Translations under genes and position numbers: made by a program
The notes under the pieces: model-generated
Database searches by the model: none
What the model saw: only the letters and a program-made list of their open reading frames with translations
Told to the model about the DNA's origin: nothing
Shown here: piece by piece, positions 19,041-38,701 of the stretch
Numbering within the stretch: position 1 is the stretch's first letter
Layout: every line of letters starts with the position of its first letter
Origin: a bacterium
GTDB taxonomy: Bacteria > UBA8248
Length of the DNA stretch: 64,000 nt
Assembly (NCBI GenBank): GCA_965204535.1
Contig: CBDBEV010000001.1
Span: 1,696,001 to 1,760,000, forward strand
Direction of reading: 5' to 3'

Positions 19041-20136
19041 GGTCAAATCGGCGATTTTGGTAATCGACGATGATGAAAAGAGTCTCAAAGGGCTCTCTGC
19101 TCTTTTGAAAAATCTGCTCCCAGATGTTGTTGTTAATTCATGGCAACCAACAGAAAAAGATGCTTCGCCAGCGGAGGCTTTTGAAAAACACCTCGGTAAT
19201 AATACGGAACTAGTTGTTACAGACTACGACTTGACGACAACCGTGAAGGGTCTATTTGGCTTGAGCGTTGTAGGGTGGTGTCAACATCGGACAATCCCCG
19301 TCGGTGAATTTGCGCGGATTAATGTTGACGCACTCCCGAAGGAACCCAGCCTTTTTGAGCTTCGGGTTCCCACGGATGAAGAAGAGGCTGCAAAATTTAT
19401 AGCGAACACATTCGAAGGTTTTAGAGAAGTTCGAACAAGCATTGAGCGCAACCCTACGTTAATTTCTGAAGGTCGAAGCTTATCAGCCGTGTTATCAGTG
19501 TTGCTGGAACGTCCTCATTTGGAAAGTCAATTCGCAGCATATATGTCTCGGCTTGGTTCGACAAACTCCGCGCTCCTCGAAATTCTTAAAAGTTTTGCCA
19601 ACAGGAAAGATAAGCAAAATGACGACGAAAAGCTTAAACTCTTAACTTACGTGTTGGGACATGTCTTGGTGAATTCTGTGTTGAAATATCCAGGACCTAT
19701 TCTGTCCGAAGAAGTCCTGTGCGCTTACCTTACGACCGAGGGAGAAGCAATCGATGCAGTGAAAAATTGCTTCGAGGAGGCTAGGTATAAGGGGCCGTTT
19801 GGTCAGGTAGGCCATTTATACTGGCGAGATGAAGTAGATGTTATTCTAGATGACTTGGCAACAACAATTGAAAATATTGATGAAGAAGTCTTCGATTCCT
19901 TCGGTGAATATAACCGCTACATTATAGAAAGTGCCTTGAAAATTGATCTTCCACCACATCAATGTGATCGATGCAAAGGTAGAAAAGGCGGATTCTGGTG
20001 TCCTTTCACAAAACGTCCCATCTGTGAACGCGCCGACTGTTCAGTACCTGCGAGTAGTTGGATTCCTTCAGGAGCGCAACTCTGTCGAGTAGAACGAGAT
20101 TATTACGACGAGTGGGCACCTCTTCTTGGTTTGTAG
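19033..20136 (+). CDS. Atypical response-regulator receiver protein with Cys-rich C-terminus
   Basis: ILVIDDDE and VVTDYDL phosphoacceptor motifs; C-terminal CDRC...CPF...CERADC...LC; no recognisable HTH output domain. Confidence 0.75.
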   Translation: MNKVKSAILVIDDDEKSLKGLSALLKNLLPDVVVNSWQPTEKDASPAEAFEKHLGNNTELVVTDYDLTTTVKGLFGLSVVGWCQHRTIPVGEFARINVDALPKEPSLFELRVPTDEEEAAKFIANTFEGFREVRTSIERNPTLISEGRSLSAVLSVLLERPHLESQFAAYMSRLGSTNSALLEILKSFANRKDKQNDDEKLKLLTYVLGHVLVNSVLKYPGPILSEEVLCAYLTTEGEAIDAVKNCFEEARYKGPFGQVGHLYWRDEVDVILDDLATTIENIDEEVFDSFGEYNRYIIESALKIDLPPHQCDRCKGRKGGFWCPFTKRPICERADCSVPASSWIPSGAQLCRVERDYYDEWAPLLGL

Positions 20137-20152
20137 CGTCCGGACCATTCTC

Positions 20153-20884
20153 ATGAATCAACACGCTTTTCGAGTAGAGCAAAAGGTTCATTCCGCTTGG
20201 AATGGAGTTCTCGACGGTCTAAAGCAGATGAATCAGGCGAGTACAGTGCGTCCAGAAGTTCCTTCGATGGTATTCAAGGTTGACCAATGTGCGCCTGATG
20301 ACGTTGTTAAACTGTTGGTTGGTCCAGTCGTATTTAACATTCCTGAACGCGCGAATGGCCAAGCAGCAAATCTTTTTATTGTGATAAAAGGGTGGTTGAC
20401 TTTTGAGGGGCCAGATTTTGGAAACACACCGTTCAAGACGGGGAATTTTGGAACAAATGTGGCATATTTTCGATTAAAGGATAGTCGACTCGAACATGTT
20501 TTTGGCGCGCATTATGATATGGACGAAATGAGAAATGGGCACCCAGTATTTCACGCACAGTTTAGCTCCCAAATTAATATTGGCTCAAGCATAAAAGAGC
20601 TCTTCAATCGCAGTGATGAGTTGGTTGATCATTTAGAAAAAATTCTTAACAGAGTCCGAACACCTACTGCGCAGATGGACGTATTCTCAGTCTTTACACA
20701 GATATGCGCGGATCATCTGATGTGGGAACAGTCGGCGCCGGAGGTGCAACGCGCTTTTGAACAAACACGCAGTTCATGCAACTTTATCGTTGGTGCTGCT
20801 CATCGCTTAGCATACCTTAATAGCAAGCCCGCTATTGGATGTTATCGATCAACTCACTGGTATGGGCCCAATGTTAAAGTTTGA
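20153..20884 (+). CDS. Hypothetical protein, candidate effector
   Basis: ORF starts 16 nt after the receiver gene; His-rich HYDMDE...HPVFHAQ and RTPTAQMD motifs. Confidence 0.7.
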   Translation: MNQHAFRVEQKVHSAWNGVLDGLKQMNQASTVRPEVPSMVFKVDQCAPDDVVKLLVGPVVFNIPERANGQAANLFIVIKGWLTFEGPDFGNTPFKTGNFGTNVAYFRLKDSRLEHVFGAHYDMDEMRNGHPVFHAQFSSQINIGSSIKELFNRSDELVDHLEKILNRVRTPTAQMDVFSVFTQICADHLMWEQSAPEVQRAFEQTRSSCNFIVGAAHRLAYLNSKPAIGCYRSTHWYGPNVKV

Positions 20885-21300: not shown

Positions 21301-21855
21301 TTATTTGTTTCTAAGCAACAATTTCGATAACACGGCCACCTGACTATTTTCATAACTTTCCTTTGATATTTCCTCCAGTTTTTTCTCTAACCATTCGTTG
21401 TCCAATAGTATCCAACCATTATTATTGAAGTGCTCGCGAAGTTTCTTCCCATCCGAAGCCCTCACGATTTTTCCACATGCAAGAGCAAGTTTGATTGTGG
21501 TTTTAGTCTTGCTTGCGATGAGCCCTTTGTCATACATTTGGTGGCGCAGTCGCTCGAAAACAACGCGCCTCAAATTCTCATCGTTGAACAATTTGTAACG
21601 TTCCGCCGCCTTTGGATTGCTGCCATCGAACGCCTTGTAAGCAACACCTCCTGAATCCAGAAAACTTTTGCACTCAACAACAAGGAGTTCGTTCCGGTTC
21701 GCACTGTATCCAACCAGGTCAAGTTCCCATCTCGGACTCGATGGTCGACCTATTGCTCTTTTCTCCCCCTTGGTCAGTTCAACCTTGAAAGCGCTTCGGA
21801 TCCAGTACCCATCCCGATGCAAGATTTCACCGACCACGCTCTCAAAGGCATCCAT
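21301..21855 (-). CDS. PD-(D/E)XK-family endonuclease
   Basis: AFESVV...WELDLVGY...LLVVECKS motif. Confidence 0.75.
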   Translation of the reverse strand: MDAFESVVGEILHRDGYWIRSAFKVELTKGEKRAIGRPSSPRWELDLVGYSANRNELLVVECKSFLDSGGVAYKAFDGSNPKAAERYKLFNDENLRRVVFERLRHQMYDKGLIASKTKTTIKLALACGKIVRASDGKKLREHFNNNGWILLDNEWLEKKLEEISKESYENSQVAVLSKLLLRNK

Positions 21856-21930: not shown

Positions 21931-24900
21931 TCACTTGATCTCCTTCTCGATAAACCCGAGCGTGATGGCGTTCTCGGTTAGGGTGCGGACTTTCCCTTGA
22001 TCAAGGCCCTCGGGAACCTCGGCGTCGATTTCAAGCTTGATGGACACCTCACTGCCGGGAAGGGTAGTGAGTTGTTCAACAACGCCTTCAATAACTTGGT
22101 GGATGTCACGGGCAGGACGCTCAGGAGAGATCATCACCGTGCCGACAAAGCGCGTCGGCTTTTTCTCGTCCGGATCAGGCGGAACGGGTTTGTTGATATC
22201 TGGATCTGGGGGGAGTTTCTTCTCTCGACGTTTCTCAGGCGGTTCGGGGCGATTCGCCTCCGCGACCTTCGAGGCCACGATCAGGCTCTCGCTGTCGATG
22301 ACGACCTGCACATTTACAGCACTGTCTATAGCGAGACCCCGATAAGCGCCGGCAGCATCGTCCCAACCCTCGGCATAGGCGAAGGGTCCTGGATGCAATT
22401 CGCTGATGGCAGAGGTGATGGACCTGGCGAGCACCGAGCGGTTTTTCAGCCGTGGCAGGTAGGTGTAGCGATTGCAGTATTCCCATAGGTCTTTCAGGGA
22501 AAGGTGGTCCTTGTCTTTCCAGATATATTTTTGAAGCTCGTTATCGAGACGCTGCGGGCCGATTTCGATCAAGAGTGCCTCTTCGTCCACCAGACGCTTG
22601 CTCGCCCGCCTGAGCAGACCGTCTTGAACCGATATCTTTCCCGATACCCATTCGACCTCGGCCTCGGGGCTCTCTTGCGCCGGATAGAGGAGGTAGCACC
22701 AGGCCTCTTTGAGCCGCGCGCCCAGCGCCTCTTTCGCTTCCTTGAGTTTCTCTTTCGCAAGCGCGCTGTCGCTCTGGGTGAGATTGAGCCGCTCGGTTTC
22801 GCGTACGATGCTCTCCCAGGCGAGGACGTCGCGCATGCCGTCCTTGAGAATTCCAATCTGACGCGCTTCGGCAGCGAGAAACACCAGCATGTTGCGGTTG
22901 ACGCGGGGCGTAGAACCGCGATTCAGCAGAATTTCCCCGCCGAACTCCAAGGCTTCCGATTTCTCGCGACCGTTGTGCGGATGAGTCACGCCGAGCACCA
23001 CCGCGCGCACCCCGCCCGCTTCATCGGGCACGTCCCCTGAATTTCCCGGCGCTACCTGAACGGCGTCGAAGTGCTCCCGATCTCTTTGGCTGTTGATGTA
23101 GACCGCCAGCGCCTTATCGATCTCGACGAGGACAAGTGCCTCCTCAACCTGACCCGCCCGGTCTGCGGCCAACCGGTTGAGGCTGGCCGAAACCGAATAC
23201 CAGTAGCGTCCGAGATCGGTGTGGAGGAACCGCGCATGGTTGCCGAGCCGCCGCAGCGCATCGCTGAAGAGCGCCGGACGCTCACCCGGCTGGATAACAC
23301 CCAGGTTAATCTGCTTATCGTCCAATCCCTTGTTTTCCTGGCTGTGAACAGGAGCCGTGCCCATGAAGATCGCCCGCGCAACCCGGCGTGTTGCTGAATA
23401 GCGGTTCAGGTTGGGTGTTGATTGGTCGATCTTGTAAGGAATGGAACCACCGCCTTCTACATCGCCAGCGATAATCGCTTGCCAATTCACGTCGAGGTAG
23501 CGCAGCAGTTCCGGTCCTACCCGGTCTGAGTCGACCGCAATGTTTCCCGGCATGATCATTACCGAAGGATCGCCCTTCATCCACAACTCGTGTACAGCTT
23601 GCGCCATCAGACGCAGCACGCCACGAGTGCGCTGGAACTCCTCCAGCGAGCCCCAACTCGTATATAATTGGTCGAAGAGTTCCGGGTGGATGGGGTAGGC
23701 CTTCTCCATCTTGCGGCGGTAGTCCTCATCGGCCGAGCCGCGCGGGAACTCGTTCGCGTTGTCTCGGTAGAGTCTGGCGAATTGCTTGAGCGTGTTGTCG
23801 CGATGGTGGTATCTGTCGCCGGGTATCTCCCTGAATAGGCGTCGACGGACTATCTCGTAGCTTTCTTCCTGGGATGCTGGCCGCCAGGAGGATTCGATGC
23901 GCGAGAAGGTCTGCTTTAGCCGGTCCAAAGCCTCGGCACCGCCTTCGCCTCCCACCTCGATCTGTGAAGCAGGCAGAGCCGCCACGAGCACGGTCTGAGG
24001 GCTGGCCTTGACCGCCTCGGTAAGAGACTGAACGAAGCTCAGATTGGCGTCGAACGAGCCGGCCGGGAGTCCTTCCGTCCTGTAAATCTGACGGAGATAA
24101 GCTACCCATTCGTCGATCAGGATGAGGCAGGGGGCGCAGTCCCTGAAAATGGCCTCAAGAATATCTGAGCCGGGCGCGATCCCCTTGGCGTCGTTTTCGG
24201 CTATCGCATCGAAGGCCGCAGACCCGCCCAATTGCCAGGCCATCTCGCCCCAGGTCGTGCGGATTTCCCTTCCGCCCTCACAAGAAATCGTATCCTGTGG
24301 GCCACGGGAGGTGCCGACCATCACCGCGCGTTTGATTTCCTTCGGCAAGGATACATCATGCTCCGAGAGAAGCTGGTCGAGGCCCGGCAGGTCCTGCGCG
24401 GGCGTGTCTCCCGCCATGTGGTAGAGCGCCAACATGGAGTGGGTCTTGCCGCCGCCGAAGTTGGTCTGAAGCTCCATCACGGGGTCACCGCCTGCTCCTG
24501 ATAGCCTTTTGGCTGCACTCACCAGAAGCGTTGACAGGCCGTCAGTCAAATATGTTCGGCTGAAAAACTCTTGCGGGTTCAGGTATTCAGAAGGGGCGCT
24601 GCCGGCGTGAACATTGCCCAAATGAGCAGCGAATTCCGCTTGTTGGAACTCGCCCGTGGCAACATCCTCGTGCGGTTCGACCACCTCGCGCCAGGGCCGC
24701 AGGCCGCCCGCCGCCTCGATGGAGAGTTGCTGCCCCTTCGTCTTTCGGCGTTCTTCGTTCCGCCGAAGCTCCGCAAACTTTGTGCGCAATATCGTATCCC
24801 GCATTTTGCCGAGTTGCCCGGCGGCATCGCCTGCACCGATCGCCTCCGTCAGGCGGCGCATGGAATCGAGCGCGCGCTCGGCATCGTCGTAGCTGAAAGT

Positions 24901-25197
24901 CTCGTTGTGAGAGAACCTGTTTCGCACGTCGAGCAGTTCGTTGACGATTGCGCGCTCCGCCCGCCCCAGCACAGCGCCGAAGGCATCTCCCCAGTAGCGG
25001 TTCATGGCGTGGAGCAACCCTGCCTGATCCCAGGCGATGTTGTCGCTGCTATCAGTTCGAAGGCGGAATTTTTCGACCATCTCCACCTGCCAATGGCCGG
25101 TAAGAGCGTTTTCCAGACGTTTTTCGACAAAAGGCGCCAGCGCCTCGGGCAGGACTTCCATACCTTCAAAAACGATTTGGCGCGCGCTCTTGGCCAT
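21931..25197 (-). CDS. Swt1-like HEPN domain fused to DUF499 AAA+ ATPase
   Basis: N-terminal RNRFSH (RxxxxH HEPN); Walker A QTNFGGGKTH; Walker B ILIDE; YPIHPELF; FQRTRGVLR. Confidence 0.9.
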   Translation of the reverse strand: MAKSARQIVFEGMEVLPEALAPFVEKRLENALTGHWQVEMVEKFRLRTDSSDNIAWDQAGLLHAMNRYWGDAFGAVLGRAERAIVNELLDVRNRFSHNETFSYDDAERALDSMRRLTEAIGAGDAAGQLGKMRDTILRTKFAELRRNEERRKTKGQQLSIEAAGGLRPWREVVEPHEDVATGEFQQAEFAAHLGNVHAGSAPSEYLNPQEFFSRTYLTDGLSTLLVSAAKRLSGAGGDPVMELQTNFGGGKTHSMLALYHMAGDTPAQDLPGLDQLLSEHDVSLPKEIKRAVMVGTSRGPQDTISCEGGREIRTTWGEMAWQLGGSAAFDAIAENDAKGIAPGSDILEAIFRDCAPCLILIDEWVAYLRQIYRTEGLPAGSFDANLSFVQSLTEAVKASPQTVLVAALPASQIEVGGEGGAEALDRLKQTFSRIESSWRPASQEESYEIVRRRLFREIPGDRYHHRDNTLKQFARLYRDNANEFPRGSADEDYRRKMEKAYPIHPELFDQLYTSWGSLEEFQRTRGVLRLMAQAVHELWMKGDPSVMIMPGNIAVDSDRVGPELLRYLDVNWQAIIAGDVEGGGSIPYKIDQSTPNLNRYSATRRVARAIFMGTAPVHSQENKGLDDKQINLGVIQPGERPALFSDALRRLGNHARFLHTDLGRYWYSVSASLNRLAADRAGQVEEALVLVEIDKALAVYINSQRDREHFDAVQVAPGNSGDVPDEAGGVRAVVLGVTHPHNGREKSEALEFGGEILLNRGSTPRVNRNMLVFLAAEARQIGILKDGMRDVLAWESIVRETERLNLTQSDSALAKEKLKEAKEALGARLKEAWCYLLYPAQESPEAEVEWVSGKISVQDGLLRRASKRLVDEEALLIEIGPQRLDNELQKYIWKDKDHLSLKDLWEYCNRYTYLPRLKNRSVLARSITSAISELHPGPFAYAEGWDDAAGAYRGLAIDSAVNVQVVIDSESLIVASKVAEANRPEPPEKRREKKLPPDPDINKPVPPDPDEKKPTRFVGTVMISPERPARDIHQVIEGVVEQLTTLPGSEVSIKLEIDAEVPEGLDQGKVRTLTENAITLGFIEKEIK

Positions 25198-25211
25198 CCT
25201 CTACTCCTCCT

Positions 25212-27995
25212 TTAAAGGTCCAGTTCGCCTTGCAGGTCGTCGGGCGTATCGCCAATCGCCGCCGCCTGCCGGGTGAGCTCCGGCCAAACGGCTATCAGGC
25301 CGTTCCATGCGGTTGCCTCCGCCGCATCTTTTCGTTTGTTGGCAGCAATGTCGTAGAGGCAATAGGCCAAATCTCTGGTCGCGTCGGTATTCCTGGGGCC
25401 GATCTTCTTGAGAAGCACGGCGGCACCATTTTCTCCGTTATGCTCAAGCGCGCGGACGAGATGCTGGCTGCATTCCCAGACGGTAAGGTGCCCGTCCTGC
25501 GCCGGGTCCCAGCCCGAGTCGAGCTCGTCGCGTCCGAGGATGCGGACCTTGCCGCCTGAAGCCTCCACGATCCCGGCGTGGCGGACACCCTCAACCGAGA
25601 TGCCGCGCGCCGTAGCGATGCTGTTCGCCACCCCGAAATCGCCCGCCTCCACCCCGTGCTGTTCGAACCAGGTGAGAGCGAAGCGTGTTTCGGCGTCGAA
25701 CTCGCCCTGTATGCCACCCAGGTATTCGTCGAGTTCGCGGTTGATGAGTTGCAGCGCAGTTTTCACGGGCATGGGAGTATCGGCGGCTTCCAGCACGGCC
25801 TTGCAGCGGCTGAAGACGGCCATTCCCGGGCCGATGGCCGCTTGCGGCATGTCGGCGGGTGCGATGTTCGCCTTTTGGAGAGTTTCGATAGCCGGGGGAA
25901 GTTGTCTCTTTAGAGCGCGTATGAATTCTGCGCGGCTGAGGGTTTCTGCGTTGCCATCCCGTTTGCGGCAAACTAAAACGACGGAGTTGGCAAGAGCGTT
26001 ACTTGCTTGGCCTCGCATGCGGTTGGGCAACTCTGTACGTATTGGCCATGTTCCGACGACGGCAAAACCTGCATTGATGATGGCCTCAAGAAACGTCGCC
26101 CAACCGGTCGAACTGATACCTTCGTCATTGATTTCGCTTTGCTTGAAGGCATAATAGAGAGTGGCTGGGAAATTGTCCGACGATTGGCGAACCATATTTG
26201 CAATCGCCTTGGACATGCCCCTAAGGAAAAAATATTCTGCCTTTTCCTTTCCTCCGTGCCGACAAGGTGTAGCGACCAGTTCCTCTTGCTTGGGGGTCGC
26301 AAGCACTCCGAACAAGTCCGGATAAACTGACTGAAGAGCGGGCTTCATCCAGCAAAAGAAAAAATCAGAGAGATCTGCGTATCCGATATTGTCGTAGTAA
26401 GGCGGGTCGGTGGAAAATACCGTGTCCTTAGGAAATCCAGCGGATTGGGCGTCGTATTGGCATAACGAACCACTACTGTTCAGCTTCAAATTAGCGAGCA
26501 CCTTCCATACCCAATCGCACATCGACATCCAATTGCCGGTGGATGTACTGAAAGGATTTGCTTCTGCGAAATCCCAGACCATAGGGATCGCTTGGCGGCC
26601 GAAAGTATTCCTCACTTTTGTGTATCCTGAATCCCAAGAACATATTGCGCTTCCCCGATCTGCCAGTCGATTTATGGTTAATCCTAAATACACACTCACC
26701 GCCTCGGCATAGGCTTTCGCGCCGGTGCCGCCGTGACGTACTGGGGTCTGGGCGTCGGAAAACCCGGCCGCCAGTGCGTCGCATTCAATTACTTCGCGGG
26801 CTTCATGAACCAATTCACTAAACGTGTTAAGCGCGGCAATTTGACGATCAGTGAAAAGGTCTCCGAAAGTAGTCAAGCCATAGCTACCAATCCTGAACCC
26901 GAGCGCATTCGGTTCGAAAACGATGTCAGGACGTTTTTCTGGTTTAACAGAACGAGCTAATTCTTCATGTTCAATTGTCGGGGGAATATATGTTCGGCCA
27001 TGTAACCCTTCGACGACGACAGCCATCAGCCTTACGCCTATATTACATTTTCGACCTTGAGCACGAATATACTCGAAAGGCATTGCCGCATCGGAAACAA
27101 GGCAAATCCCGCCTCGTCGGTTCATGGTTCCTTCAAGACCGTAGCGCGCGTCCCCATTTGCCGTAGAACGAATTGTAAAATAATAATCTTTGCCTTCAAC
27201 GATTGGCTCGACCCAGACTTCTTTTCCTTTCTTTGTCGAAAGATCAAAACTCCGAACCAGCGGCACATGCGCATCCGAAAACGCCGGATCAGGGCTTGGC
27301 ACGGTGCGTGTCCATATCCAGGCAATTACCGTCGCCTTGCCGCCGCCATGCTCCTTGGGGAGATCCACCTTCGGGTACAAATGGCCAATGCGCTCGAAGG
27401 CCTGCTCCCGCATCCAGGCGCCGTAGTATTTAACGTCTTCGGCCAAGCCCTCGGCGTTGCGATAGTGGTTGCGTTCCTTGGGACCTGGATGCGCCGGCTC
27501 TCTTTCTTTGAACAGTGGGGGAATCTCGATCATCGCCTTGCCGATCACCACGGCTACGGGGTTAAGATCGCTGCCATAAGCAGGAAGGCCAAGGCGCTGT
27601 GCCTCAAGCGGGATGGAGCCTCCGCCCGAGAAGGGATCGTAGATGGGGGGCAGTTCTCCTTTGCAACTACGGGCTATTTCCGCACGAGCGCGCGCGAGCA
27701 CCTCCTCGTTTGTGGAATTTTCCCATTTCACGAGGTCTTCGATGATCTTGAACAGCCGTCGTCGCTCCTTCTCGACGGTCTCTTGCGTGGGGAACTTTTC
27801 GGGATGGCTGGAGGGGTCGTCCACAAGTTGCGCGAACAGCACCGCCCGGCAGGCCGCCAGTGGCCTTCTGGCCCACCATAGGTGGAGCGTGGAAGGGTGG
27901 CCGTGGCGGATCGATTTCTCCCGCGCCGATGCGGCGTTGATCATATCGAGCGGAAGCGCAACCTCGATGAGTTTTTTCCTAACGCCTGAGTCCAT
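25212..27995 (-). CDS. DUF1156 adenine DNA methyltransferase, copy B
   Basis: HLWWARRPL, DPFSGGGSIP, TDPPYYDNI. Confidence 0.92.
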   Translation of the reverse strand: MDSGVRKKLIEVALPLDMINAASAREKSIRHGHPSTLHLWWARRPLAACRAVLFAQLVDDPSSHPEKFPTQETVEKERRRLFKIIEDLVKWENSTNEEVLARARAEIARSCKGELPPIYDPFSGGGSIPLEAQRLGLPAYGSDLNPVAVVIGKAMIEIPPLFKEREPAHPGPKERNHYRNAEGLAEDVKYYGAWMREQAFERIGHLYPKVDLPKEHGGGKATVIAWIWTRTVPSPDPAFSDAHVPLVRSFDLSTKKGKEVWVEPIVEGKDYYFTIRSTANGDARYGLEGTMNRRGGICLVSDAAMPFEYIRAQGRKCNIGVRLMAVVVEGLHGRTYIPPTIEHEELARSVKPEKRPDIVFEPNALGFRIGSYGLTTFGDLFTDRQIAALNTFSELVHEAREVIECDALAAGFSDAQTPVRHGGTGAKAYAEAVSVYLGLTINRLADRGSAICSWDSGYTKVRNTFGRQAIPMVWDFAEANPFSTSTGNWMSMCDWVWKVLANLKLNSSGSLCQYDAQSAGFPKDTVFSTDPPYYDNIGYADLSDFFFCWMKPALQSVYPDLFGVLATPKQEELVATPCRHGGKEKAEYFFLRGMSKAIANMVRQSSDNFPATLYYAFKQSEINDEGISSTGWATFLEAIINAGFAVVGTWPIRTELPNRMRGQASNALANSVVLVCRKRDGNAETLSRAEFIRALKRQLPPAIETLQKANIAPADMPQAAIGPGMAVFSRCKAVLEAADTPMPVKTALQLINRELDEYLGGIQGEFDAETRFALTWFEQHGVEAGDFGVANSIATARGISVEGVRHAGIVEASGGKVRILGRDELDSGWDPAQDGHLTVWECSQHLVRALEHNGENGAAVLLKKIGPRNTDATRDLAYCLYDIAANKRKDAAEATAWNGLIAVWPELTRQAAAIGDTPDDLQGELDL

Positions 27996-28061
27996 GTGCT
28001 TGCCTCGTGTTTTCCGCTCGGCGCAGCTGATTTATGCACCGAAGGTTTCGTTTCAAATCCC

Positions 28062-30878
28062 TCAAAGATTCAGCACGCCTTGCAGGTCGCCGGGCGTTTC
28101 GCGAATCGCCGCCGCCTGTTGGGTGAGTTCCGGCCAAACGGCTATCAGGCCGTTCCATGCGGTCGCCTCCGCCGCATCCTTTCGCTTGTTGGCCGCGATG
28201 TCGTAGAGGCAATAGGCCAAATCCCTGGTTGCATCGGCATATCTGGGGCCGATTTTCTTGAGAAGCACGGCGGCCCCGTCTTCGCCGCCATGCTCCAAAG
28301 CGCGGACGAGATGTTGGCTGCACTCCCAGACGGTGAGATGCCCGTCCTGCGCCGGGTCCCAACCCGAGTCGAGCTCGTCGCGTCCAAGGATGCGGACCTT
28401 GCCGCCGGAAGCCTCGGCGATCCCGGCATGACGCACGCTTTCCACCGAGATGCCGCGCGCCGTAGCGATGCTGTTCGCCGCACCGAAATCACCCTCCGTC
28501 ATGCCGTGCTGCTCGTACCAGGTGAGGGCGAAGCGCGTTTCGGCGTCGAACTCGCCTTGGATACCGCCTAGATATTCGTCGAGTTCGAGGTTGATAAGTT
28601 GTAGCGCGGTCTTCACGGGCATTGGCGTGTCGGCGGCTTCCAGCACGGCCTTGCAGCGGCTGAACACGGCCATGCCCGGGCCTATGGCCGCCTGCGGCAT
28701 GTCGGCGGGTGCGATGTTCGCTTGTTGTAACGTCTCAATAGCTGGTTGGAGTTCTCGCTTGAGCGTGCGGATAAATTCCGCGCGGCTTAAGATCTCAGCA
28801 TTATCGTCTCGTTTGCGGCAGACGAGTACGACCGAGTTGGCAAGAGCGTTCACATTTTTCTTAAGATTTCCGGTCAATTCACTGCGGATTGGCCACGTCC
28901 CAAAGACAGCATACCCAGCATTGATGACGGCCTGTAGAAAGGTCGCCCAACCAGCTGAATTTATATGCTCTTGTTTAACCTCGCTTTGTTTAAAGGCATA
29001 CCAAATGACTGCGGGAAATTCGTAGGATGATTTTTGCGCCATATTGGTGATAGCCTTTGACATGCCATCCAGAAAAAACGATTCTGCCGCTTCCTTTCCT
29101 CCGTGTCGATAGGACGTGGCAACCAGTTCTTCCTGCTTTGGGGTCGCAAGCACATCGAACAAGTCTGGATAAACTGACTGAAGGGTGGGCCTCATCCAGC
29201 AAAAGAAAAAATCAGAGAGGTCGGCATAGGCGATATTGTCGTAGTAGGGCGGGTCAGTGGAAATTACTATGTGTTCCGGAAAAGAAGCGTTTTGCGCTTC
29301 CTGTTGATTGATCTCCCCCTTGGAACCCAATCCCAATTTAACGATGACTTTTGTCAAGTAATCGAGTTGTCCTAGGAAATTACCACTGGAGTTACTGAAT
29401 GGATTACCCTCGCAAAAATCCCAGACCATAGGTAGTGCTTGTCGGGCGAATACCTGTTCTACTGTTTGACGTCCGGTGTGCCAGAACGTTAACGAAGACT
29501 GCCGATTGGCGAGGCGACCGATATTCAACCCCAAATACACACTCACCGCCTCGGCATAGGCTTTTGTGCCGGTTCCACCTTCGCGCAGTGGAGTAGGGTC
29601 GTCGGAAAAACCCGTCATCAGAGCGTCCCGTTCTATTTCATAGCGGGCCTCATGCGCCAACTCGCTGAAGGTGCTCAGCGCGACAAGCTGCCGGTCAGTG
29701 AAGAGCTTCCCCCATTGATCCAACCCATAACCATGACAAGTGCCGCCTGTGAGCTTCGATGGAGTGTCGGCTGATAGAAATGTATTGCGGCATTTTTGAG
29801 CAATGTCGCTCATTTGGGGTGATTTTGCCGCAGCAGTGTGTAAGTCACTAGGAGCGAAATAGTTGCGGCTACGTTTCCCTTGGGTGACTATAGCGATAAG
29901 AGTTTGACTCATTTTTCCAGATTTGCCGCATTTTTTCACATAGTCTGCAGTGATAGCAGCACCGGATAACAGACACTGAAATATTCCACGCCCCGCTTTT
30001 GTTCCTGCCTTTGCTGCTAAAATTTCGTCCTTAGCCCCGGCTTTTCGGATACGGTAGCGGATTGTCTTCTCTGACTTGTCTAAAATAGGCTCGATCCATA
30101 CTTCTTTCCCGGCTTTGGAATTCAGTAGAAAACTCGATGCAATAGGCACCTGCACCTCAGAAAACGCCGGGTCCGGGCTCGGCACGGTGCGCGCCCAAAT
30201 CCAAGCGATCACCGTCGCCTTCCCGCCACCATGTTCCTTGGGCAAATCCACCTGCGGATACAGATGACCGATGTACTCGAAAGCTCGCTCTCGCATCCAT
30301 GCGCCGTAGTATTTGACGTCCTCGGCCAGGCCTTCCGCGTTACGGTAATGGTTGCGCTCTCTCGGGCCCGGGTGCGCCGGCTCTCTATCTTTGAACAGTG
30401 GGGGTATCTCGATCATCGCCTTGCCGATCACGACGGCCACGGGGTTCAGATCGCTGCCGTAGGCGGGAAGGCCCAGGCGCTGGGCCTCAAGCGGGATGGA
30501 GCCGCCGCCCGAGAAAGGATCGTAGATAGGGGGTAATTCGCCGTTACAACTTCGGGCAATCTCGGCGCGGGCGCGCACGAGTACCTCTTCGTTGGTGGAG
30601 TTCTCCCACTTTACAAGGTCTTCGATGATGGCGAAGAGCCGCTTGCGCTCTTTATCCTCAGCCTCTTGGGTGGGGAATTTATCGGGATGGCTGGAGGGGT
30701 CGTCCACCAGTTGCGCGAACAGGACCGCGCGGCAGGCCGCCAGCGGCCTGCGCGCCCACCACAGGTGGAGCGTGGAAGGGTGGCCGTGGCGGATCGATTT
30801 CTCCCGCGCCGATGCGGCGTTGATCGCATCGAGCGGAAGCGCAACCTCAATGAGTTTTTTCTTAACGCCTGGGTCCAT
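28062..30878 (-). CDS. DUF1156 adenine DNA methyltransferase, copy A
   Basis: Same motifs as copy B; near-identical termini and divergent centre. Confidence 0.92.
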   Translation of the reverse strand: MDPGVKKKLIEVALPLDAINAASAREKSIRHGHPSTLHLWWARRPLAACRAVLFAQLVDDPSSHPDKFPTQEAEDKERKRLFAIIEDLVKWENSTNEEVLVRARAEIARSCNGELPPIYDPFSGGGSIPLEAQRLGLPAYGSDLNPVAVVIGKAMIEIPPLFKDREPAHPGPRERNHYRNAEGLAEDVKYYGAWMRERAFEYIGHLYPQVDLPKEHGGGKATVIAWIWARTVPSPDPAFSEVQVPIASSFLLNSKAGKEVWIEPILDKSEKTIRYRIRKAGAKDEILAAKAGTKAGRGIFQCLLSGAAITADYVKKCGKSGKMSQTLIAIVTQGKRSRNYFAPSDLHTAAAKSPQMSDIAQKCRNTFLSADTPSKLTGGTCHGYGLDQWGKLFTDRQLVALSTFSELAHEARYEIERDALMTGFSDDPTPLREGGTGTKAYAEAVSVYLGLNIGRLANRQSSLTFWHTGRQTVEQVFARQALPMVWDFCEGNPFSNSSGNFLGQLDYLTKVIVKLGLGSKGEINQQEAQNASFPEHIVISTDPPYYDNIAYADLSDFFFCWMRPTLQSVYPDLFDVLATPKQEELVATSYRHGGKEAAESFFLDGMSKAITNMAQKSSYEFPAVIWYAFKQSEVKQEHINSAGWATFLQAVINAGYAVFGTWPIRSELTGNLKKNVNALANSVVLVCRKRDDNAEILSRAEFIRTLKRELQPAIETLQQANIAPADMPQAAIGPGMAVFSRCKAVLEAADTPMPVKTALQLINLELDEYLGGIQGEFDAETRFALTWYEQHGMTEGDFGAANSIATARGISVESVRHAGIAEASGGKVRILGRDELDSGWDPAQDGHLTVWECSQHLVRALEHGGEDGAAVLLKKIGPRYADATRDLAYCLYDIAANKRKDAAEATAWNGLIAVWPELTQQAAAIRETPGDLQGVLNL

Positions 30879-31031
30879 GAACTAGCCTCGTGTTCGTTCT
30901 TTTTGGCGTTGTTACGTCGTTATTCCGTTTTCAAAAGCGCTTTTCATCTCCCCGATAAAGCGCTCAAGTCGGCACCGCCGCATCTATGAGCGTATCAAGC
31001 GTAAGGGCGGCCCCGATGAGTTATTTGCTTG

Positions 31032-32051
31032 TCACCTAGTAGCTACAAGTCCGGCTGTTTTAGAAATGTTTTTGGCCAATTCTTTGTAATCACCATAGGC
31101 TTTGTTTACGGCTATCGAATGGCTGCCGATGGCCCCATCGGCGGAAGTCAACTGAAAGATCGGCTTGCGCATCTCTTGGGCCATCGGCACGAGGCTGCGG
31201 TAATGACGAATGGTAGCCAGGCAATTTCCGTCTTCCGCTGGAGTATTGGCCGGAGGCAGTAATTCGTCTGCTGCGCCTCCCAACATTTCGGCGTATTCCG
31301 CGGGCATTCTGTTGACCCATTTGTCATAAGCCTTGGCCGGTCGATCCAACCTGACCCCGTGTTGCTGAATAATATAACCTACGGGCTGCATCCTGCCCTC
31401 TGGCAGCGGAAAATCTGGATTCTCCCAGTTCTCCAGTCGTTTTCTCCAATCCTGGCGCCATTGGCGCAACGTCGGGCCAAGGTTGCGCAAACCCTGAAGT
31501 GAGAAGAGATCGGCCGCTAGAGGCACGATGACCTTGTCCGTCGCTATCAACGCCGACCGGTTGATGGCTCCGAGATTGGGGCCGACGTCGGCAATGATCA
31601 CCGTCGCATCGCATTTTTCCGCCCCGTTCTGCATCACAATCCAAAAGCTTGAAAGGATACGAAACGCCCGGTACAGGCTATCGGAGCCGAGGGCGTTTGG
31701 CCACTGCTCCGACAGCGTGCTCTCGAAACCGGACAGCGCCAGGTCACCAGGCAAAACGGAAAGTGACGACGTAATTCTTTGAACGTCCGGCGGCAGGAGA
31801 TCGCCGACTTCCGTCAGCGGCTTGACGCACTGAAAGATAGTCGCGCCGCGATTTTCCTTTTGTCCCCCATTCCAGATTTCTTCCAAGAAATCCTCTTCGA
31901 GAAACGCCGCCGTCAGGTTGGCTTGCGGATCCAAATCGCACACGAGCACGGTATGGCCGATTTCAGACAGCATCCAGGCCAGATGATAGGCAAGCGAAGT
32001 CTTGCCCACGCCGCCCTTGTTGTTGAAAAACGTAAGAACTGGAACGGTCAT
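31032..32051 (-). CDS. ParA/MinD-like ATPase (AAA_31)
   Basis: FFNNKGGVGKTS deviant Walker A, DLDPQANLT, DVGPNLG; ATGA overlap with upstream gene. Confidence 0.88.
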   Translation of the reverse strand: MTVPVLTFFNNKGGVGKTSLAYHLAWMLSEIGHTVLVCDLDPQANLTAAFLEEDFLEEIWNGGQKENRGATIFQCVKPLTEVGDLLPPDVQRITSSLSVLPGDLALSGFESTLSEQWPNALGSDSLYRAFRILSSFWIVMQNGAEKCDATVIIADVGPNLGAINRSALIATDKVIVPLAADLFSLQGLRNLGPTLRQWRQDWRKRLENWENPDFPLPEGRMQPVGYIIQQHGVRLDRPAKAYDKWVNRMPAEYAEMLGGAADELLPPANTPAEDGNCLATIRHYRSLVPMAQEMRKPIFQLTSADGAIGSHSIAVNKAYGDYKELAKNISKTAGLVATR

Positions 32052-33256
32052 CCGTTCTTTCCTTCGATAATTGCCAAAATGAAGTTGTCGTTCACTTCAA
32101 ATCGAAGCTCGGGGTTTCCATTGTCTACAAGCGCCTTACGCGCATTCGCGATGCCTACCCCGAAGCGTTGCACGAAACCGAGCACTTTCATGGCTTCCGC
32201 CAGGTTCGGGTTGCGGTAGTCGGTCACGCCAGGCCGCCCGAAATTCTCCCGCGTCACACTGCCGAACGGCCCACCAGGATTCTGGAACTCAATGCGATTA
32301 TTAAACCATGTAATCCTTACCGGCGCGTTTGTGCCTTCGTAAGTTCGGTGCATAATTGCATTCCGCGAAATCTGCTGAAGAGCGACGAGTGGATAGGATG
32401 GTGATCTGAGTTCCGTATCCGATGTCGTCAAATCGACTCGCGTATGGATATGCGCTTTCATCTTCTCGTCAATCCGCCTTACTACCAAGGCCAAATCACC
32501 GCTGATTTCTTCCTCGTCGATTACGTCGTCCGACAATTCCGTTCCGTCAATACGGAGAAACTGAACCCATGCGTTGAAGATATCATCCCGAGGACTCGTG
32601 CCGAATGTTAAGAGGCCAAGGACGGTCGGTATGGGTTCGTCTGCCGAGGCAACCATTTTCGTAGCCGCGAGGCGTTCGGTCAGGCTTCGCTCGTTTTCTT
32701 CGAGGGTTTCCGCATCAAATGCCCTAGGAAGGTATTCATTTTCAAACTGGTATTGATTCAAGGCAGAGATATCGGCAGTCGGCACGGGTTGGATGTCGAA
32801 GGGTATATCCAGGGCGCGTCTTTTCTCGTTAAGAATGCGCTCATCTTGCGCCGTCGCAACGTCGCGCCTCGGGCCAATCCGTACATGGATGCGCCCTCGA
32901 TAACGCACCGGAGGGGAGTCCGACGGCGTCACGGTGACAACGGCCACGTCGCTACCCATCATCTCTCTCTTCTCGACCAGCATGGTAGGCGGCGGCACAA
33001 TCTGGCCGTCACTCTTCACGTCGGCAAGTTGACGCAAAACCTCATCCGTAATTCTCAGTCCCGTTGGTCGCCCTTTGTCGTCGACACCCACAAACAAGAT
33101 GCCCGGCTGCCCGGAGCCCGGCAAGTCGTTGGCAAAGGCGCAAACTGCTCTTCTGATATCACGCGGAGTTTGTCCACCTAGGCTTTCTTTGAACTCAACG
33201 CGAAAATTCTCCCCCTCTTCGAGAAGTCTTTCCAGTTCCTGATCATCCAATCTCAT
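32048..33256 (-). CDS. AlbA_2 (Schlafen-like) domain plus HATPase_c_4 domain protein
   Basis: GENFRVEFKES...VCAFAN...GILFVGVDDKG; NAIMHRTY...NPGG...YRNPNLAEAMKVLGFVQRFGVG. Confidence 0.85.
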   Translation of the reverse strand: MRLDDQELERLLEEGENFRVEFKESLGGQTPRDIRRAVCAFANDLPGSGQPGILFVGVDDKGRPTGLRITDEVLRQLADVKSDGQIVPPPTMLVEKREMMGSDVAVVTVTPSDSPPVRYRGRIHVRIGPRRDVATAQDERILNEKRRALDIPFDIQPVPTADISALNQYQFENEYLPRAFDAETLEENERSLTERLAATKMVASADEPIPTVLGLLTFGTSPRDDIFNAWVQFLRIDGTELSDDVIDEEEISGDLALVVRRIDEKMKAHIHTRVDLTTSDTELRSPSYPLVALQQISRNAIMHRTYEGTNAPVRITWFNNRIEFQNPGGPFGSVTRENFGRPGVTDYRNPNLAEAMKVLGFVQRFGVGIANARKALVDNGNPELRFEVNDNFILAIIEGKNG

Positions 33257-36200
33257 TTCGGCGCCTCCGCACGTTCCAGCAGCCGTTTCAAATTGTACTG
33301 GATGGCGTCCTGCTCGAAGTTCGGTTCGTGTTCATCCAAAGCGCCCCGGACATAGCGTGGCGCATTTGAAGAGCCGTTACTCACTTCAACTATCGCGAGA
33401 ATGAACTTTTCCGGCTCGTGTAATGAAGTGATGATCTCCTGGCGGGTAATCATAACGGATTGAGCGCCATCCGCTCGACCTTTGACCTCGATGAACCGAT
33501 AACCCTTGGCGTCGGGGTCGAAAGATTCGATGTCGTAGCCGACCTTTTTCGCCGAGACGTCGACCGGTTTGTTGCCAAGCTCCCGCTCGATTTCCATGAC
33601 TGCATTCATGGCTGCCAGCTCGATTTCCCGCCGTGCATCTACGTCGGCTGAAAAATCCTCAGAGACACCCTCATCTATCAGACCACGAGGGATGACGAGC
33701 ATGCCGCCGCGAACGCGAGGGGGTCGGGACGAGATGAATTTCTCCTGCTCCAGAAGTACCATACGCCGCTGCAGGCGATCAGCCAAATCCTCGGCGCGCT
33801 GCTTGGCGTTTTGCCAATTCAGCCTCGTCTTCCTGCCGGCGCGCTCCTGTTCTTTCAGCTCGAAGGCGCGGGAATCCCAATAGTTAATCTCTTTCTTCAG
33901 ACGCGCTTCAACTTCACGCTCGACTTTTTCGATTTCCGGCAGGCGGCGCGCCCGGATAGCCTCGACATGCTCGCGCGCCAACTCCGTAGTCGCGAACTCC
34001 GTCGCCCTTTGCTCAAAATCGCTCCGCAACCACGCCTCGGTCGATGCGTCCTCGATGAATGCGATCTCCTCCTGACGAGCGGGGCGCAGGTTAAGGTGCG
34101 GTGCGATTCCCGCGCTGTTCACAGCGCCATCCTTGCCGATGGCCGCAAACTGGAGTTTTTCAGAAACGATGTGCGGCTTTCCGGTTGCTGTCGTCCGCGC
34201 GTCCTGGACGCTGTGCTCCAGCAGCACCACGGCCGATAACGCTTCGCTCGGGTCAGTTTCATCAACCAGGACCGCACCCTGCTGCATCAGATAGCCGTAC
34301 TTCTCGCGTATGATGCTGATCACGGCTTCGAGTAGCGGGTGTCCGGGCGCAACAAAAACGGCGACGGGCTGCTGGTCAATCTTGTCTTTCTCGAAGCAGA
34401 TGCGCTCGTAGCGTCTTTGTACAACAGCTCCGAAGCCGACCTGGCGGTCGCGTTCTCGAATGGCAGCAGGAACATGGGTAATCTCCCAGCGGCCTACTTC
34501 GCGCTTTTTCATGCGTCCGCCGAGATGCTGGAATGCCTCAATGAAAAAGCTCTGGATATGGCAGGGTTGTAGGCGCTGGGCTTCTGCACGCTCCATTTCG
34601 AGCCGAAGCTCCTCGACCGTAGCCGCCCCAAGAGAGTCATTGGTCAGGGCGCGGCGCTCTAATAGTCGCAATAAACGGTCTTGATCCGCTGCACCGTCGA
34701 CTTTTTGGAACAGCCGGGCCTTCACCTCTTCCTGCTCGCCGTACTGAATCGCCTCGAACAGGAGGTCTTTGAGCGCCGTATCCTCAAAGAGTTCCCCGAG
34801 CACATCGTAGACACGTCCCCCGAGCGCCTCGCGCGCAGTTTCCAGCTTGTCCAGCAACCGTGCATAAACTTCCCCCTCGCGCGTGTCCGTTGCAACCAGA
34901 TTCCACAAGTGACAAACCTCGGTCTGCCCGATGCGGTGAATGCGCCCGAAGCGCTGCTCGATCCGGTTCGGGTTCCAGGGCAGGTCATAATTGACCATCA
35001 GATGCCCGCGCTGGAGGTTCACTCCCTCACCTGCTGCATCGTTCGCGACCAGCACCAGCAAATCGCGGTCGGCCATGAAACGCTCAACGATCTTGCGCCG
35101 TTCTTCGCGGCGGACGCCGCCATGGATGGCCGCTACCGCCTCGGGGTTGCCCAGGCGCGCGCGGATTTTATCGACAAGGTAGTTGAGCGTGTCCTTGGGT
35201 TCCGTGAAGACGATGAGCTTCCGCCGGACACCGCTTGGGTCCGTCATCAATGGGTCATCCAGAATTCGGTCGAGTTGCGACCACTTCGTGTCCTGCCCCG
35301 AATGGAGCACGCCAAGCGCCTGGCGCTCCAGACTCTGGAGCGTCTCAATCTCCAAGGCGAGTTGCTCGGCCGTCTCGGACGCTGTGGATCCTGTAGCGAT
35401 GCGCTCTTCCAAGGCTTCTGCTTCGTCTTGGCCGAATTCTTCGAAGTCCTGCCACTCTTCATCATCCACTTCCATAGCGCCAGGACGAACCCCTTGACTT
35501 TTCGCTGCCAGTCGCGCCTCGCCAAGCTGAAACTCGAGCCGCTTACGCCGACGCTTCAGGGACTGGTAGATCGCAGCTGGGGAAGAGGCAAGTCTGCGCT
35601 GTAGGATTTGCAGGGCGAACCCGACAGTGTTTCGCTTCCGCCCGTCGCTTTCCGCAAAGCGCTGGACGCGGTTCATCTCTTTGCGGACATAGTTGGTGAC
35701 AGCGGTATAAAGAGCGGCTTCGTCGGGCGAGAGTTCGTACTTCGCGGTGTAGGCGCGCCGCTCTGGGAACAAGGGTCGCGCATCGAAGCGCAGCAACTCT
35801 TCCTTGGTAAGTCTGCGCATCAGGTCTTCGGTGTCGGCTAAATGAACGCCGTCGCGGAATCGCCCTTCGAACCTGTCGCCATCCAGCAGCGCCATGAAAA
35901 GCTGAAAATCCTCCTCCTTGCCGTTGTGGGGTGTCGCGGTCATGAGCAGGAAATGGCGGCAAACCCGGCCCAGAAGCTGGCCAATCCGGTAACGCTTCGT
36001 GTACTTCACCTCACCGCCGAACCAGGTGGCGGCCATACGGTGGGCCTCGTCGCAAACAATCAAATCCCATTCGGTGGCTTGTTCGAGCTTCTCCTGAAGC
36101 GTTTCGTCACGCGCCAACATGTCGAGGCGCGCGATCAGCCAGTTGCGGTCCTCAAAGGGATTCCCGGAACGTGAGGACTCGATCATCTCGCGAGTGAGGA

Positions 36201-36744
36201 TATCGAATTCCAGACCGAATTTTTCTCCGAACTCGTCCTGCCATTGCTCGACCAAGCTTCCGGGGGCAACGATCAGGCAACGTTCCAGAGCGGCACGCGC
36301 GATGAGTTCTTTAATCAGCAGCCCGGCCATGATCGTCTTGCCCGCGCCCGGATCGTCGGCGAGCAGAAAGCGTAACGGTTGGCGTGGGATCATCTCGTCA
36401 TAGACGGCGGATATCTGGTGGGGCAGCGGGTCCACACGGCTGGTGTGGATGGCGAGGTAAGGATCGAAGTGGTACGCGAGTTCTATCCGGTTCGCCTCTG
36501 TGACCAATCGCAGGAGCGCCCCGTCGCCGTCGAATGACCATGTTCGGCCACGCTCGTCGATGCCAAGGCGCGGTTCATCATCACGATATAGAGTAGTCTC
36601 TGACACGCTGCCGTTCGGATCACGATAGATCAGATTTATCGCCTGGTTGCCAATCCATTCGACCGAAACTACTTGCACCGGCTGGTCTGGAACCACTCCT
36701 CGGACCATGGTGCCAGGGCCGATGTCTTCAAGCACACTCATCAA
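33253..36744 (-). CDS. SNF2-family helicase with C-terminal DUF3883 nuclease
   Basis: LLADDPGAGKT, DEAH, TATPH, EGVNLQ, EQRFGRIHRIGQ; C-terminal GYDIES...FIEVKGR. Confidence 0.93.
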   Translation of the reverse strand: MMSVLEDIGPGTMVRGVVPDQPVQVVSVEWIGNQAINLIYRDPNGSVSETTLYRDDEPRLGIDERGRTWSFDGDGALLRLVTEANRIELAYHFDPYLAIHTSRVDPLPHQISAVYDEMIPRQPLRFLLADDPGAGKTIMAGLLIKELIARAALERCLIVAPGSLVEQWQDEFGEKFGLEFDILTREMIESSRSGNPFEDRNWLIARLDMLARDETLQEKLEQATEWDLIVCDEAHRMAATWFGGEVKYTKRYRIGQLLGRVCRHFLLMTATPHNGKEEDFQLFMALLDGDRFEGRFRDGVHLADTEDLMRRLTKEELLRFDARPLFPERRAYTAKYELSPDEAALYTAVTNYVRKEMNRVQRFAESDGRKRNTVGFALQILQRRLASSPAAIYQSLKRRRKRLEFQLGEARLAAKSQGVRPGAMEVDDEEWQDFEEFGQDEAEALEERIATGSTASETAEQLALEIETLQSLERQALGVLHSGQDTKWSQLDRILDDPLMTDPSGVRRKLIVFTEPKDTLNYLVDKIRARLGNPEAVAAIHGGVRREERRKIVERFMADRDLLVLVANDAAGEGVNLQRGHLMVNYDLPWNPNRIEQRFGRIHRIGQTEVCHLWNLVATDTREGEVYARLLDKLETAREALGGRVYDVLGELFEDTALKDLLFEAIQYGEQEEVKARLFQKVDGAADQDRLLRLLERRALTNDSLGAATVEELRLEMERAEAQRLQPCHIQSFFIEAFQHLGGRMKKREVGRWEITHVPAAIRERDRQVGFGAVVQRRYERICFEKDKIDQQPVAVFVAPGHPLLEAVISIIREKYGYLMQQGAVLVDETDPSEALSAVVLLEHSVQDARTTATGKPHIVSEKLQFAAIGKDGAVNSAGIAPHLNLRPARQEEIAFIEDASTEAWLRSDFEQRATEFATTELAREHVEAIRARRLPEIEKVEREVEARLKKEINYWDSRAFELKEQERAGRKTRLNWQNAKQRAEDLADRLQRRMVLLEQEKFISSRPPRVRGGMLVIPRGLIDEGVSEDFSADVDARREIELAAMNAVMEIERELGNKPVDVSAKKVGYDIESFDPDAKGYRFIEVKGRADGAQSVMITRQEIITSLHEPEKFILAIVEVSNGSSNAPRYVRGALDEHEPNFEQDAIQYNLKRLLERAEAPK

Positions 36745-38543: not shown

Positions 38544-38701
38544 CACCACGCCTCCGGCTGCTACCGGGGGCTTTTCACGTCTGGCATTCTATTCTGAACA
38601 TGCTGATCGATCAACCGAATTTTACAAATTCGGTCTGCCGACCCACGTTATATAGGCGTTCGCATGAAACTTCGGTACCCAAAACACCGGGAGGTCCCGA
38701 A

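Follow-up and report, generated by a model that had tools for sequence, protein, structure and literature searches.

The window considered here, a stretch of 64,000 nucleotides (nt) from a UBA8248 bacterium (contig CBDBEV010000001.1 of assembly GCA_965204535.1, positions 1,696,001 to 1,760,000), contains a predicted anti-phage defence operon of the Hma type in which the methylase gene, hmaB, is present as two complete and different alleles. Hma was described by Payne et al. 2021 (PMC8565338) and Liu et al. 2024 (PMC11232893), and the DUF499-centred Type-1 BREX-related (BR) system (PMC12839542) is the same system. Hma/BR systems occur in thousands of taxa (PMC12839542). According to PADLOC and Pfam searches, the genes of the window follow one another on one strand in the order hmaA, an AlbA_2/HATPase_c_4 gene, a ParA-like gene, hmaB, hmaB, and hmaC. 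The hmaA-hmaB-hmaC order on one strand, the three domain architectures, and the embedded cargo genes are those of Hma/Type-1 BR loci; the window differs from such loci in that a single hmaA and a single hmaC are accompanied by two hmaB alleles, both intact. Markers of related systems were not matched, neither PglZ (the marker of BREX types 1-6) among the 15 proteins of 15368-39199 in PADLOC nor the PLD (HKD nuclease) and DUF3780 domains that mark Type-2 BR among the proteins scanned with Pfam. For NF042963, the PLD-linked DUF1156 equivalog, whose cut-off is 1000, the scores were 142 and 124 bits.

Two complete hmaB genes

Copy A of hmaB (28062-30878; like all genes and modules of the operon given below, on the minus strand) encodes a DUF1156 amino-methyltransferase of 938 amino acids (aa) (Pfam DUF1156; PADLOC HmaB, 1135 bits). 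Copy B (25212-27995) encodes a protein of 927 aa (PADLOC HmaB, 1207 bits). The two open reading frames (ORFs) are intact paralogues 66 nt apart, as an earlier note on this DNA had read them, and are the only two matches in the whole genome. The spacer between them (27996-28061) holds a GAGG ribosome-binding site for copy B, and a GAGG site precedes both copies. In these 66 nt, a sequence scan found no consensus terminator and no remnant of hmaC was found, an alignment to the start of hmaC being no better than alignments of shuffled sequence. Promoter and terminator scans stayed near shuffle level (13 vs 8.3; 16 vs 20.4).

The two proteins are 74% identical overall. In copy A numbering, 223 of 240 residues (93%) are identical at 1-240 and 217 of 238 (91%) at 690-927. 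Between these ends, identity is 30% at 245-395 (46/151), 73% at 396-454 (43/59), 48% at 455-535 (39/81), 84% at 536-597 (52/62), and 63% at 598-680 (53/84). The ends are therefore nearly identical, as previously claimed, at the protein level but not at the DNA level, where identity is about 85% (85.4% over codons 1-240 and 84.1% over codons 690-836, with many synonymous changes). The centre had been called largely unrelated; it proved to be homologous and alignable, with variable and conserved blocks in alternation. The short divergent segments that had been quoted (HTGRQTVEQVF vs DSGYTKVRNTF; ELTGNLKKNV vs ELPNRMRGQAS) are present as written, and the FSGGG and DPPY motifs are kept in both copies (DPFSGGG at 120-126; DPPY at 542-545 in A and 530-533 in B).

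The position of DPPY after strand 4 marks both copies as predicted amino-methyltransferases, forming either N6-methyladenine (m6A) or N4-methylcytosine (m4C). Methyltransferases that form 5-methylcytosine (m5C) carry a cytosine-C5 catalytic Pro-Cys motif. The m5C class, with which HmaB was labelled in PMC8565338, does not fit the two copies, both of which have DPPY. Both also have the parts described for the Type-1 BR methylase, namely motif I, an insert after strand 2, DPPY, and a C-terminal helical region.

An assembly artefact that merged two strains would explain two such alleles, and the assembly has a contamination of 5.26%, but this explanation is extremely improbable. The two copies end differently and are separated by a unique spacer, and a related genome (G006) has a pair with other alleles and another spacer. 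In two sequencing runs (X1 and X2, from one sample that is possibly the source), contigs span 30 of 30 bins across 25000-31100, the junction among them, and show neither deviating letters nor joints or loose ends; the contig carrying the spacer is outside the listed pieces, and its bridging is read from the cover. Over both copies, the depth in X1 is 28-35, compared with 21-29 in the flanking sequence. Had two strains been merged, each allele should reach only part of the flank depth, so the presence of both copies at flank depth in read-derived contigs argues against a merge. In a second sample of the same study (X3), the sequences of A and B are identical to those of the first over the stretches covered. 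Contigs of X3 leave about 27910-28449 uncovered (the 3' end of A, the spacer, and the 5' end of B) and contain no other letters. They run unbroken across the shared repeats where those of X1 and X2 break (24445-25629; 30763-32028), fork from the 5' end of A into either centre, and merge into the 3' end of B. No X3 contig joins across, and depth is uneven (61-198) and does not sum as for a mixture. Collapsed single-copy hybrids would produce such a pattern, but it may also stem from graph cleaning or library bias, and it is not used as evidence. Restriction-site density (13 sites/kb) did not account for the gap; only GANTC correlated (rho -0.59), in one of six tests.

Variable modules of the methylase

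Sequence comparison places the differences between A and B mainly in three modules, for which the labels V1, V2, and V3 were coined in the present analysis. V1 of copy A (residues 245-395, with a signature loop at 372-385; 29694-30146) is 30% identical to B and 66% to the homologue L018. V1 of copy B (signature loop at 361-373; 26847-27263) is 62% identical to the homologues P0002 and P0016 compared with 30% to A, and its loop type is also found in Thermus and in genomes G600 and G529. V2 of copy A (residues 455-535; 29274-29516) is 48% identical to B and has the allele type of loci L016 (78% DNA identity) and L017, whereas V2 of copy B (26427-26669) is 83-84% identical to the upstream copy of G006 and 48% to A. 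Within V3 (residues 598-680 in copy A), secondary structure puts the V3b loop of copy A (residues 665-681; 28836-28886) between the final two strands of the catalytic fold. The V3b loop of copy B (residues 653-670; 25986-26039) has predicted local distance difference test (pLDDT) scores below 50 at 654-669 in its AlphaFold2 (AF2) model.

AF2 models of the two copies reached a pLDDT of 77.6 (A) and 72.1 (B). In the copy B model, an insert from about residue 143 to about 510 holds V1 and V2, and V3 consists of loops after later core strands. The target-recognition domain (TRD) of the Type-1 BR methylase has been placed in the insert after core strand 2 (PMC12839542). The variable loops of copy B at 363-367, 452-471, 618-630, and 654-669 have pLDDT below 50, but so do conserved stretches at 25-43, 534-542, and 565-573, and the low values in the loops are thus weak support.

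The same segments vary across the family. From 233 near-full-length homologues, 186 were kept at <90% identity. Among these 186, distances in the N-terminal and C-terminal scaffold are correlated across the variable centre (rho 0.40), whereas those of the V1 loop or V2 and the scaffold give values of -0.09 to 0.03, and those of the V1 loop and V2 give 0.11-0.14. The two halves of V2 (V2a and V2b) are coupled at 0.59, and V2 and V3b at 0.37-0.38. The same loop types reappear in distant taxa, with 87 different combinations of V1 and V2. Certain types nevertheless travel together: 15 of the 19 carriers of LGFR in V1 have R-x-R-G in V3b (the copy B type) vs 8 of 167 others, FIRxTF in V2 is joined by RTERxxR in 13/16 vs 3/170, and the V2 type of copy A by the V3b type of copy A in 3/3 vs 0/183, all three being patterns picked after inspection of the data among kin that are not independent.

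Trees were built from 28 rows (nearest neighbours plus 10 random) by a quick search without a mixture model. A, B, and the G006 pair, the four tandem copies, fall in one starred group of six in the tree of the scaffold. By the approximately unbiased (AU) test, a clade of A and B is not rejected for the scaffold (p 0.76) and is rejected for V1 (p 2.1e-15). For V2, the test rejects both a clade of all four tandem copies (p 7e-5) and one formed by the G006 pair (p 2e-5).

A sample of closely related alleles gives a similar profile. Nine alleles from Thermus thermophilus plasmids, taken from 9 of 16 Thermus records, have a mean identity of 86-100% in most 30-residue windows, which falls to 50-51% at 361-390 and 451-480 and to 76-79% at 331-360 and 481-510. 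A tenth Thermus allele completes all four V1 x V2 combinations, and the V1 and V3b loop types of copy B both occur among the Thermus alleles. One T. thermophilus plasmid (NZ_AP024935.1; L166, L178) carries two Hma systems with the same V1 type and different V2, one of them with a split helicase.

In these comparisons, the modules occur across the family as discrete alleles that are reshuffled independently of the scaffold, so that A and B carry two old alleles from a shared pool rather than segments that diverged by drift following a duplication. TRD exchange in Type I HsdS and Type IIG enzymes (Furuta et al. 2011, PMC3077401) is similar in that modules move at conserved flanks and recur recombined. 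The HmaB modules differ from those in lying inside the catalytic chain, in not being repeats of each other, and in having no assigned motifs.

Origin and frequency of hmaB pairs

The shared ends of A and B have a synonymous divergence (dS) of 0.75 (N-terminal) and 0.79 (C-terminal), with ratios of nonsynonymous to synonymous divergence (dN/dS) of 0.059 and 0.068, and are under purifying selection. Between the genome of the window (G000) and its sister species G006, orthologues have a dS of 0.49 (hmaA) and 0.52-0.60 (hmaC). A fresh duplication was rejected and the second copy was probably captured, since the dS between A and B exceeds that of these orthologues. Among the four tandem copies, every pair has a dS of 0.75-1.19, and the copies do not pair by position; inheritance of one ancestral tandem by both G000 and G006 was not supported, given the absence of positional orthology and the different spacers. 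The simplest reading is that a foreign hmaB was captured beside a resident one, separately in G000 and G006. A relative with a single methylase gene is L016 (hmaA-AlbA-ParA-hmaB-hmaC), whose hmaB is split by an insertion sequence (IS) and has the V2/V3 type of copy A. The closest hma loci are damaged: L016 (4027-9470) by this IS and G006 (C36) by a stop at hmaA codon 1029. In G015 (C2:313683-314366), hmaB breaks off after residue 230, and the 14 kb retrieved downstream contain no hmaC.

Marks of earlier exchange also surround the cargo genes. Cargo gene 1 (32048-33256; 402 aa) has Schlafen/AlbA_2 and HATPase_c_4 domains, and cargo gene 2 (31032-32051; 339 aa) encodes a ParA-like AAA_31 ATPase (both by Pfam). 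The cassette occupies an identical site in G015, L016, and L020, and homologues follow hmaA in G529. By alignment, the stretch between the cassette and copy A (30879-31031) is made up of the decayed remains of an hmaA 3' end and, after them, the intergenic sequence and ribosome-binding site native to the hmaA-hmaB junction. It aligns over its full length to the junction of the hmaA end and hmaB start in G006, with a clearer remnant in L016, and is an insertion scar of the cassette. The second hmaB may have been captured from another Hma locus by the same kind of exchange that leaves gene-end scars around Hma cargo.

One methylase per locus is the usual state, as the earlier note had stated. 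Of 151 loci found with A or B as queries, 112 are bounded by hmaA and hmaC, and two full hmaB genes occur in 1 of these 112 (G006). In the phylum of the window, DUF1156 scores above cut-off in 10 of 51 genomes, 2 of which have a tandem. The G006 pair, from the same genus (C36:17366-20168 and 14407-17217), consists of alleles other than A and B. In the phylum of G455, 70 of 401 genomes match (with up to 14 candidates scored per genome), and the seven near-pairs examined comprise four inverted pairs, one direct pair (G529), and two cases of a remnant beside a full gene. No near pair of full hmaB genes was found in the 10 matching genomes of a set of 401 (all single), in the 52 of another 401 (with remnants in G978), or in the 28 of a set of 400 (including G1296, with G1476 unscored). 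Two hmaB genes were present in 1 of 60 plasmid records, that of NZ_AP024935.1, as parts of two separate Hma systems 78 kb apart.

These counts bear on the idea that A and B methylate the two strands of one asymmetric site. Some Type IIS systems have two enzymes that modify opposite strands of one site, and two co-oriented methylases in one operon would suit such a division. This is very improbable here, because no more than one full hmaB is present in 111 of the 112 bounded loci and the pairs of G000, G006, and G529 are different allele combinations.

The state of the other direct pairs would suit an intermediate of allele replacement, in which a new hmaB lies beside the old one, a single copy effectively programmes the machine, and the other protects the old sites until it decays. 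One copy is frameshifted in 2 of the 2 direct pairs other than that of the window: the upstream gene of G006, by a 7-nt duplication near codon 840, and the downstream gene of G529. In G529 (C1:1553464-1568291, L183), the two copies belong to a distant DUF1156 subfamily, lie 11.8 kb apart under one hmaA and one hmaC with cargo genes between, share 92-94% DNA identity, and differ chiefly in V2 and V3b. The G006 spacer holds about 105 nt of a copy of the hmaB end and hmaC start, at about 90% identity, N-terminal hmaB remnants precede the full copy in L020, L131, G856, and G616, and direct pairs are as rare as the count of 1/112 indicates. In the window, by contrast, both copies are intact, have low dN/dS, and are identical in two samples over the stretches covered. 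Replacement in progress is therefore rather unlikely as an account of the pair, and it is compatible with present dual function, from which it differs mainly in stability. Since one copy is frameshifted in both other direct pairs, the two-copy state may be short-lived.

The four inverted pairs (G600, G634, G851, and G843; L179-L182; G600:C1:3482500-3489900) have a different layout, with a full and a C-terminally truncated hmaB arranged divergently around two tyrosine recombinases whose catalytic motifs are intact. Homology ends at the same codon in 4/4, and the recombinase pair is oriented toward the full copy at two loci and away from it at the other two; the recombinases are orthologous and the four loci are not independent. 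The paired genes diverge most in V1, V2, and V3 and share exact runs of up to 256 nt, which makes these loci, judging by their layout, a candidate specificity shufflon. Their scaffold is about 65% identical to the window copies, they belong to the same family, and V1, V2, and V3 differ between their two alleles as between A and B. They differ from the window in that one copy is truncated and inverted with recombinases between, and would complete one allele at a time, whereas the window locus should be able to express both alleles. BREX type 1 PglX inversion loci of Lacticaseibacillus rhamnosus (Milman et al. 2023, PMC9881135) likewise have constant termini and alternative methylase middles in one locus. 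PglX belongs to another methylase family, with a C-terminal TRD, and its inversion is linked to a recombinase, whereas the window copies are both complete, direct, and without a recombinase.

Direct repeats might nevertheless act as a switch that needs no recombinase, recombination between them deleting or converting modules to give cells with A only, B only, or V1/V2 hybrids. Five exact runs longer than 30 nt are shared by A and B (63, 36, 35, 35, and 32 nt); they flank the modules, one lying between V1 and V2. The longest is at 27880-27942, with its partner at 30763-30825, and the others (32-36 nt) start at 25279, 25594, 25780, and 26686. With these runs, modules that recombine freely across the family, and an inverted, recombinase-equipped version of the layout in other genomes, the switching by deletion proposed in the earlier note is possible in principle. 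Against it, the repeats are 84-85% identical as DNA with no homogenisation (dS 0.75-0.79), far from the exact runs of the inverted pairs, and no homologue of the recombinase pair of the inverted loci was found in the window, where A and B are direct repeats with a 66-nt spacer and the locus has no recombinase. No hybrid or collapsed joint was found at 98% likeness in contigs of three runs, which drop rare variants. Deletion is moreover one-way, and a switch of this kind is unlikely. Elsewhere in G000, at least 12 loci have paired tyrosine recombinases that share about 40% identity with the recombinases of the invertible hmaB loci. At one of them (G000:C2:2695914-2702127), the recombinase pair lies between inverted paralogues of 442 and 430 aa with signal-peptide-like starts and 76% DNA identity over 785 nt, a candidate invertible locus.

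Several features adjoin the operon. After hmaC, a 184-aa ORF at 21301-21855 (minus strand) has no Pfam, PADLOC, or NCBIfam match; by eye it contains a D...ExK pattern that we take to resemble PD-(D/E)xK nucleases. A low-GC block of four genes at 15368-20884 (plus strand) converges on hma as a second defence-like unit, and consists of an Eco57I-like methylase, a double-HATPase/histidine-kinase protein, a weak response-regulator-like ORF, and an unidentified ORF. On the other side, the minus strand at 37066-37157 carries a tRNA-like gene (ARAGORN; Rfam, 37.4 bits) whose anticodon is GCG, with an extended variable arm and a T loop that departs from the standard; another GCG tRNA call is at C1:919698, and the genome also has a normal ACG tRNA-Arg. 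At 38600-39400 (plus strand), a reverse-transcriptase fragment is followed by sequence that by eye is like a group II intron 3' end, with no Rfam match at gathering score.

A proposed pairing of two specificities on one machine

The two methylase genes are accompanied by single copies of the other Hma components. HmaA (33253-36744; 1163 aa; PADLOC HmaA, 1565 bits) has the Pfam domains SNF2-rel_dom, Helicase_C, and NOV_C, the last being a PD-(D/E)xK nuclease domain at the C-terminus of the SNF2 helicase (E 2.6e-20). Its motifs DDPGAGKT, DEAH, and QRFGRIHR and residues D1071, E1086, K1088, and E1103 are kept, and the E-x-K followed by an E 17 residues further has the spacing given by Liu et al. 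(PMC11232893). HmaC (21931-25197; 1088 aa; PADLOC HmaC, 930 bits) is a HEPN_Swt1 and DUF499 AAA+ ATPase (Pfam) with its HEPN and Walker motifs kept (RNRFSH, GGGKT, ILIDE). Two parts of the earlier proposal of one machine with two specificities are borne out: one helicase and one ATPase accompany two methylases, and the segments in which the methylases differ are hypervariable, recombining modules. The reading preferred here, with a probability of about 0.55, is that the two alleles have different motifs, are both expressed from the operon, and share HmaC and HmaA through their conserved ends. DNA would be read by V1 and V2, which lie in the insert separating motif I from DPPY, and by the V3 loops of the catalytic fold, while the conserved N-terminal DUF1156 and C-terminal helical regions would dock on the common HmaC/HmaA machine. 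By analogy with BREX PglX, each allele would set what is methylated and what is attacked, and both enzymes would mark host DNA, at two target motifs.

A number of points weigh against this reading of the pair. The clade of A and B is not rejected in V2 alone (p 0.24, 84 columns), and the homologue set is biased, having been collected with queries derived from A and B and with DPPY required. The broken copies of the G006 and G529 pairs, together with the hmaA stop of G006, suggest that a state with two working copies may be unstable. For no HmaB did the literature searched report a motif, methylation of DNA, or restriction guided by HmaB. The fold of copy B in its AF2 model is a Rossmann S-adenosylmethionine (SAM) methyltransferase (best Z 11.8, root-mean-square deviation 3.4 over 173 residues), and the best structural matches are the tRNA methyltransferases Trm11 and Trm14 (Z 11.5-11.8), with many SAM enzymes tied within 1-2 Z. 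A DNA-bound relative was not found, a PDB sequence search returning nothing under E 0.02 and Foldseek nothing at E 0.001 or better.

Those fold matches would also suit the view that HmaB does not direct HmaA and is instead a stand-alone modifier, acts on RNA, or has loops that sense phage components. HmaA of Halomonas is protective alone, hmaB is near 85.3% of hmaA loci, and phage T4 grown on a host with HmaB infected no differently (PMC11232893); the protection by HmaA and the T4 result count against the preferred reading as well. We nevertheless regard a methylase that does not direct the helicase as decidedly unlikely. T4 is a poor test, its DNA being heavily modified, and the allelic swapping of modules resembles that of the TRDs of restriction systems. 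Weak matches to the D12 class occur in HmaB homologues, below cut-off in 3/4. The order of motif I, insert, and DPPY is that of alpha-class DNA amino-methyltransferases (PMC12839542).

Hma itself is an already known system. Neither a locus where a single machine has two complete hmaB alleles nor the allele structure of V1, V2, and V3 was found in the literature searched. In its main text, supplement excluded, PMC12839542 makes no mention of two copies, two methyltransferases, paralogues, inversion, or a recombinase. The literature searched contained no report of duplicated or invertible DUF1156 methylases, although supplements of PMC12839542 and PMC9881135 that were outside the search could list such loci; one supplement file of PMC9881135 had no DUF1156 match, and the available parts of PMC10609329 and PMC7988955 contained nothing on HmaB. 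An Hma survey (Payne et al. 2024, 10.1101/2024.01.29.577857) retained only loci with each hma gene once.

The reading of two specificities on one machine may be extended to the family, in a form that is possible but on balance doubtful. HmaB would then act as a programmable specificity subunit built of modules, with a code made up of V1 and V2, both of them tuned by V3, and Hma would diversify it by allele exchange, by recombinase-driven inversion, and by stacking of direct repeats, which would give dual specificity together with a recombinase-free reservoir of A-only, B-only, and hybrid enzymes. At this locus, two natural alleles stand against a single helicase/ATPase background, and comparison across the family directs attention to three segments in which they differ. 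If the proposal is true, HmaB would be a new modular methylase scaffold, and the published survey, by excluding duplicated genes, would have missed a layer of Hma diversification.

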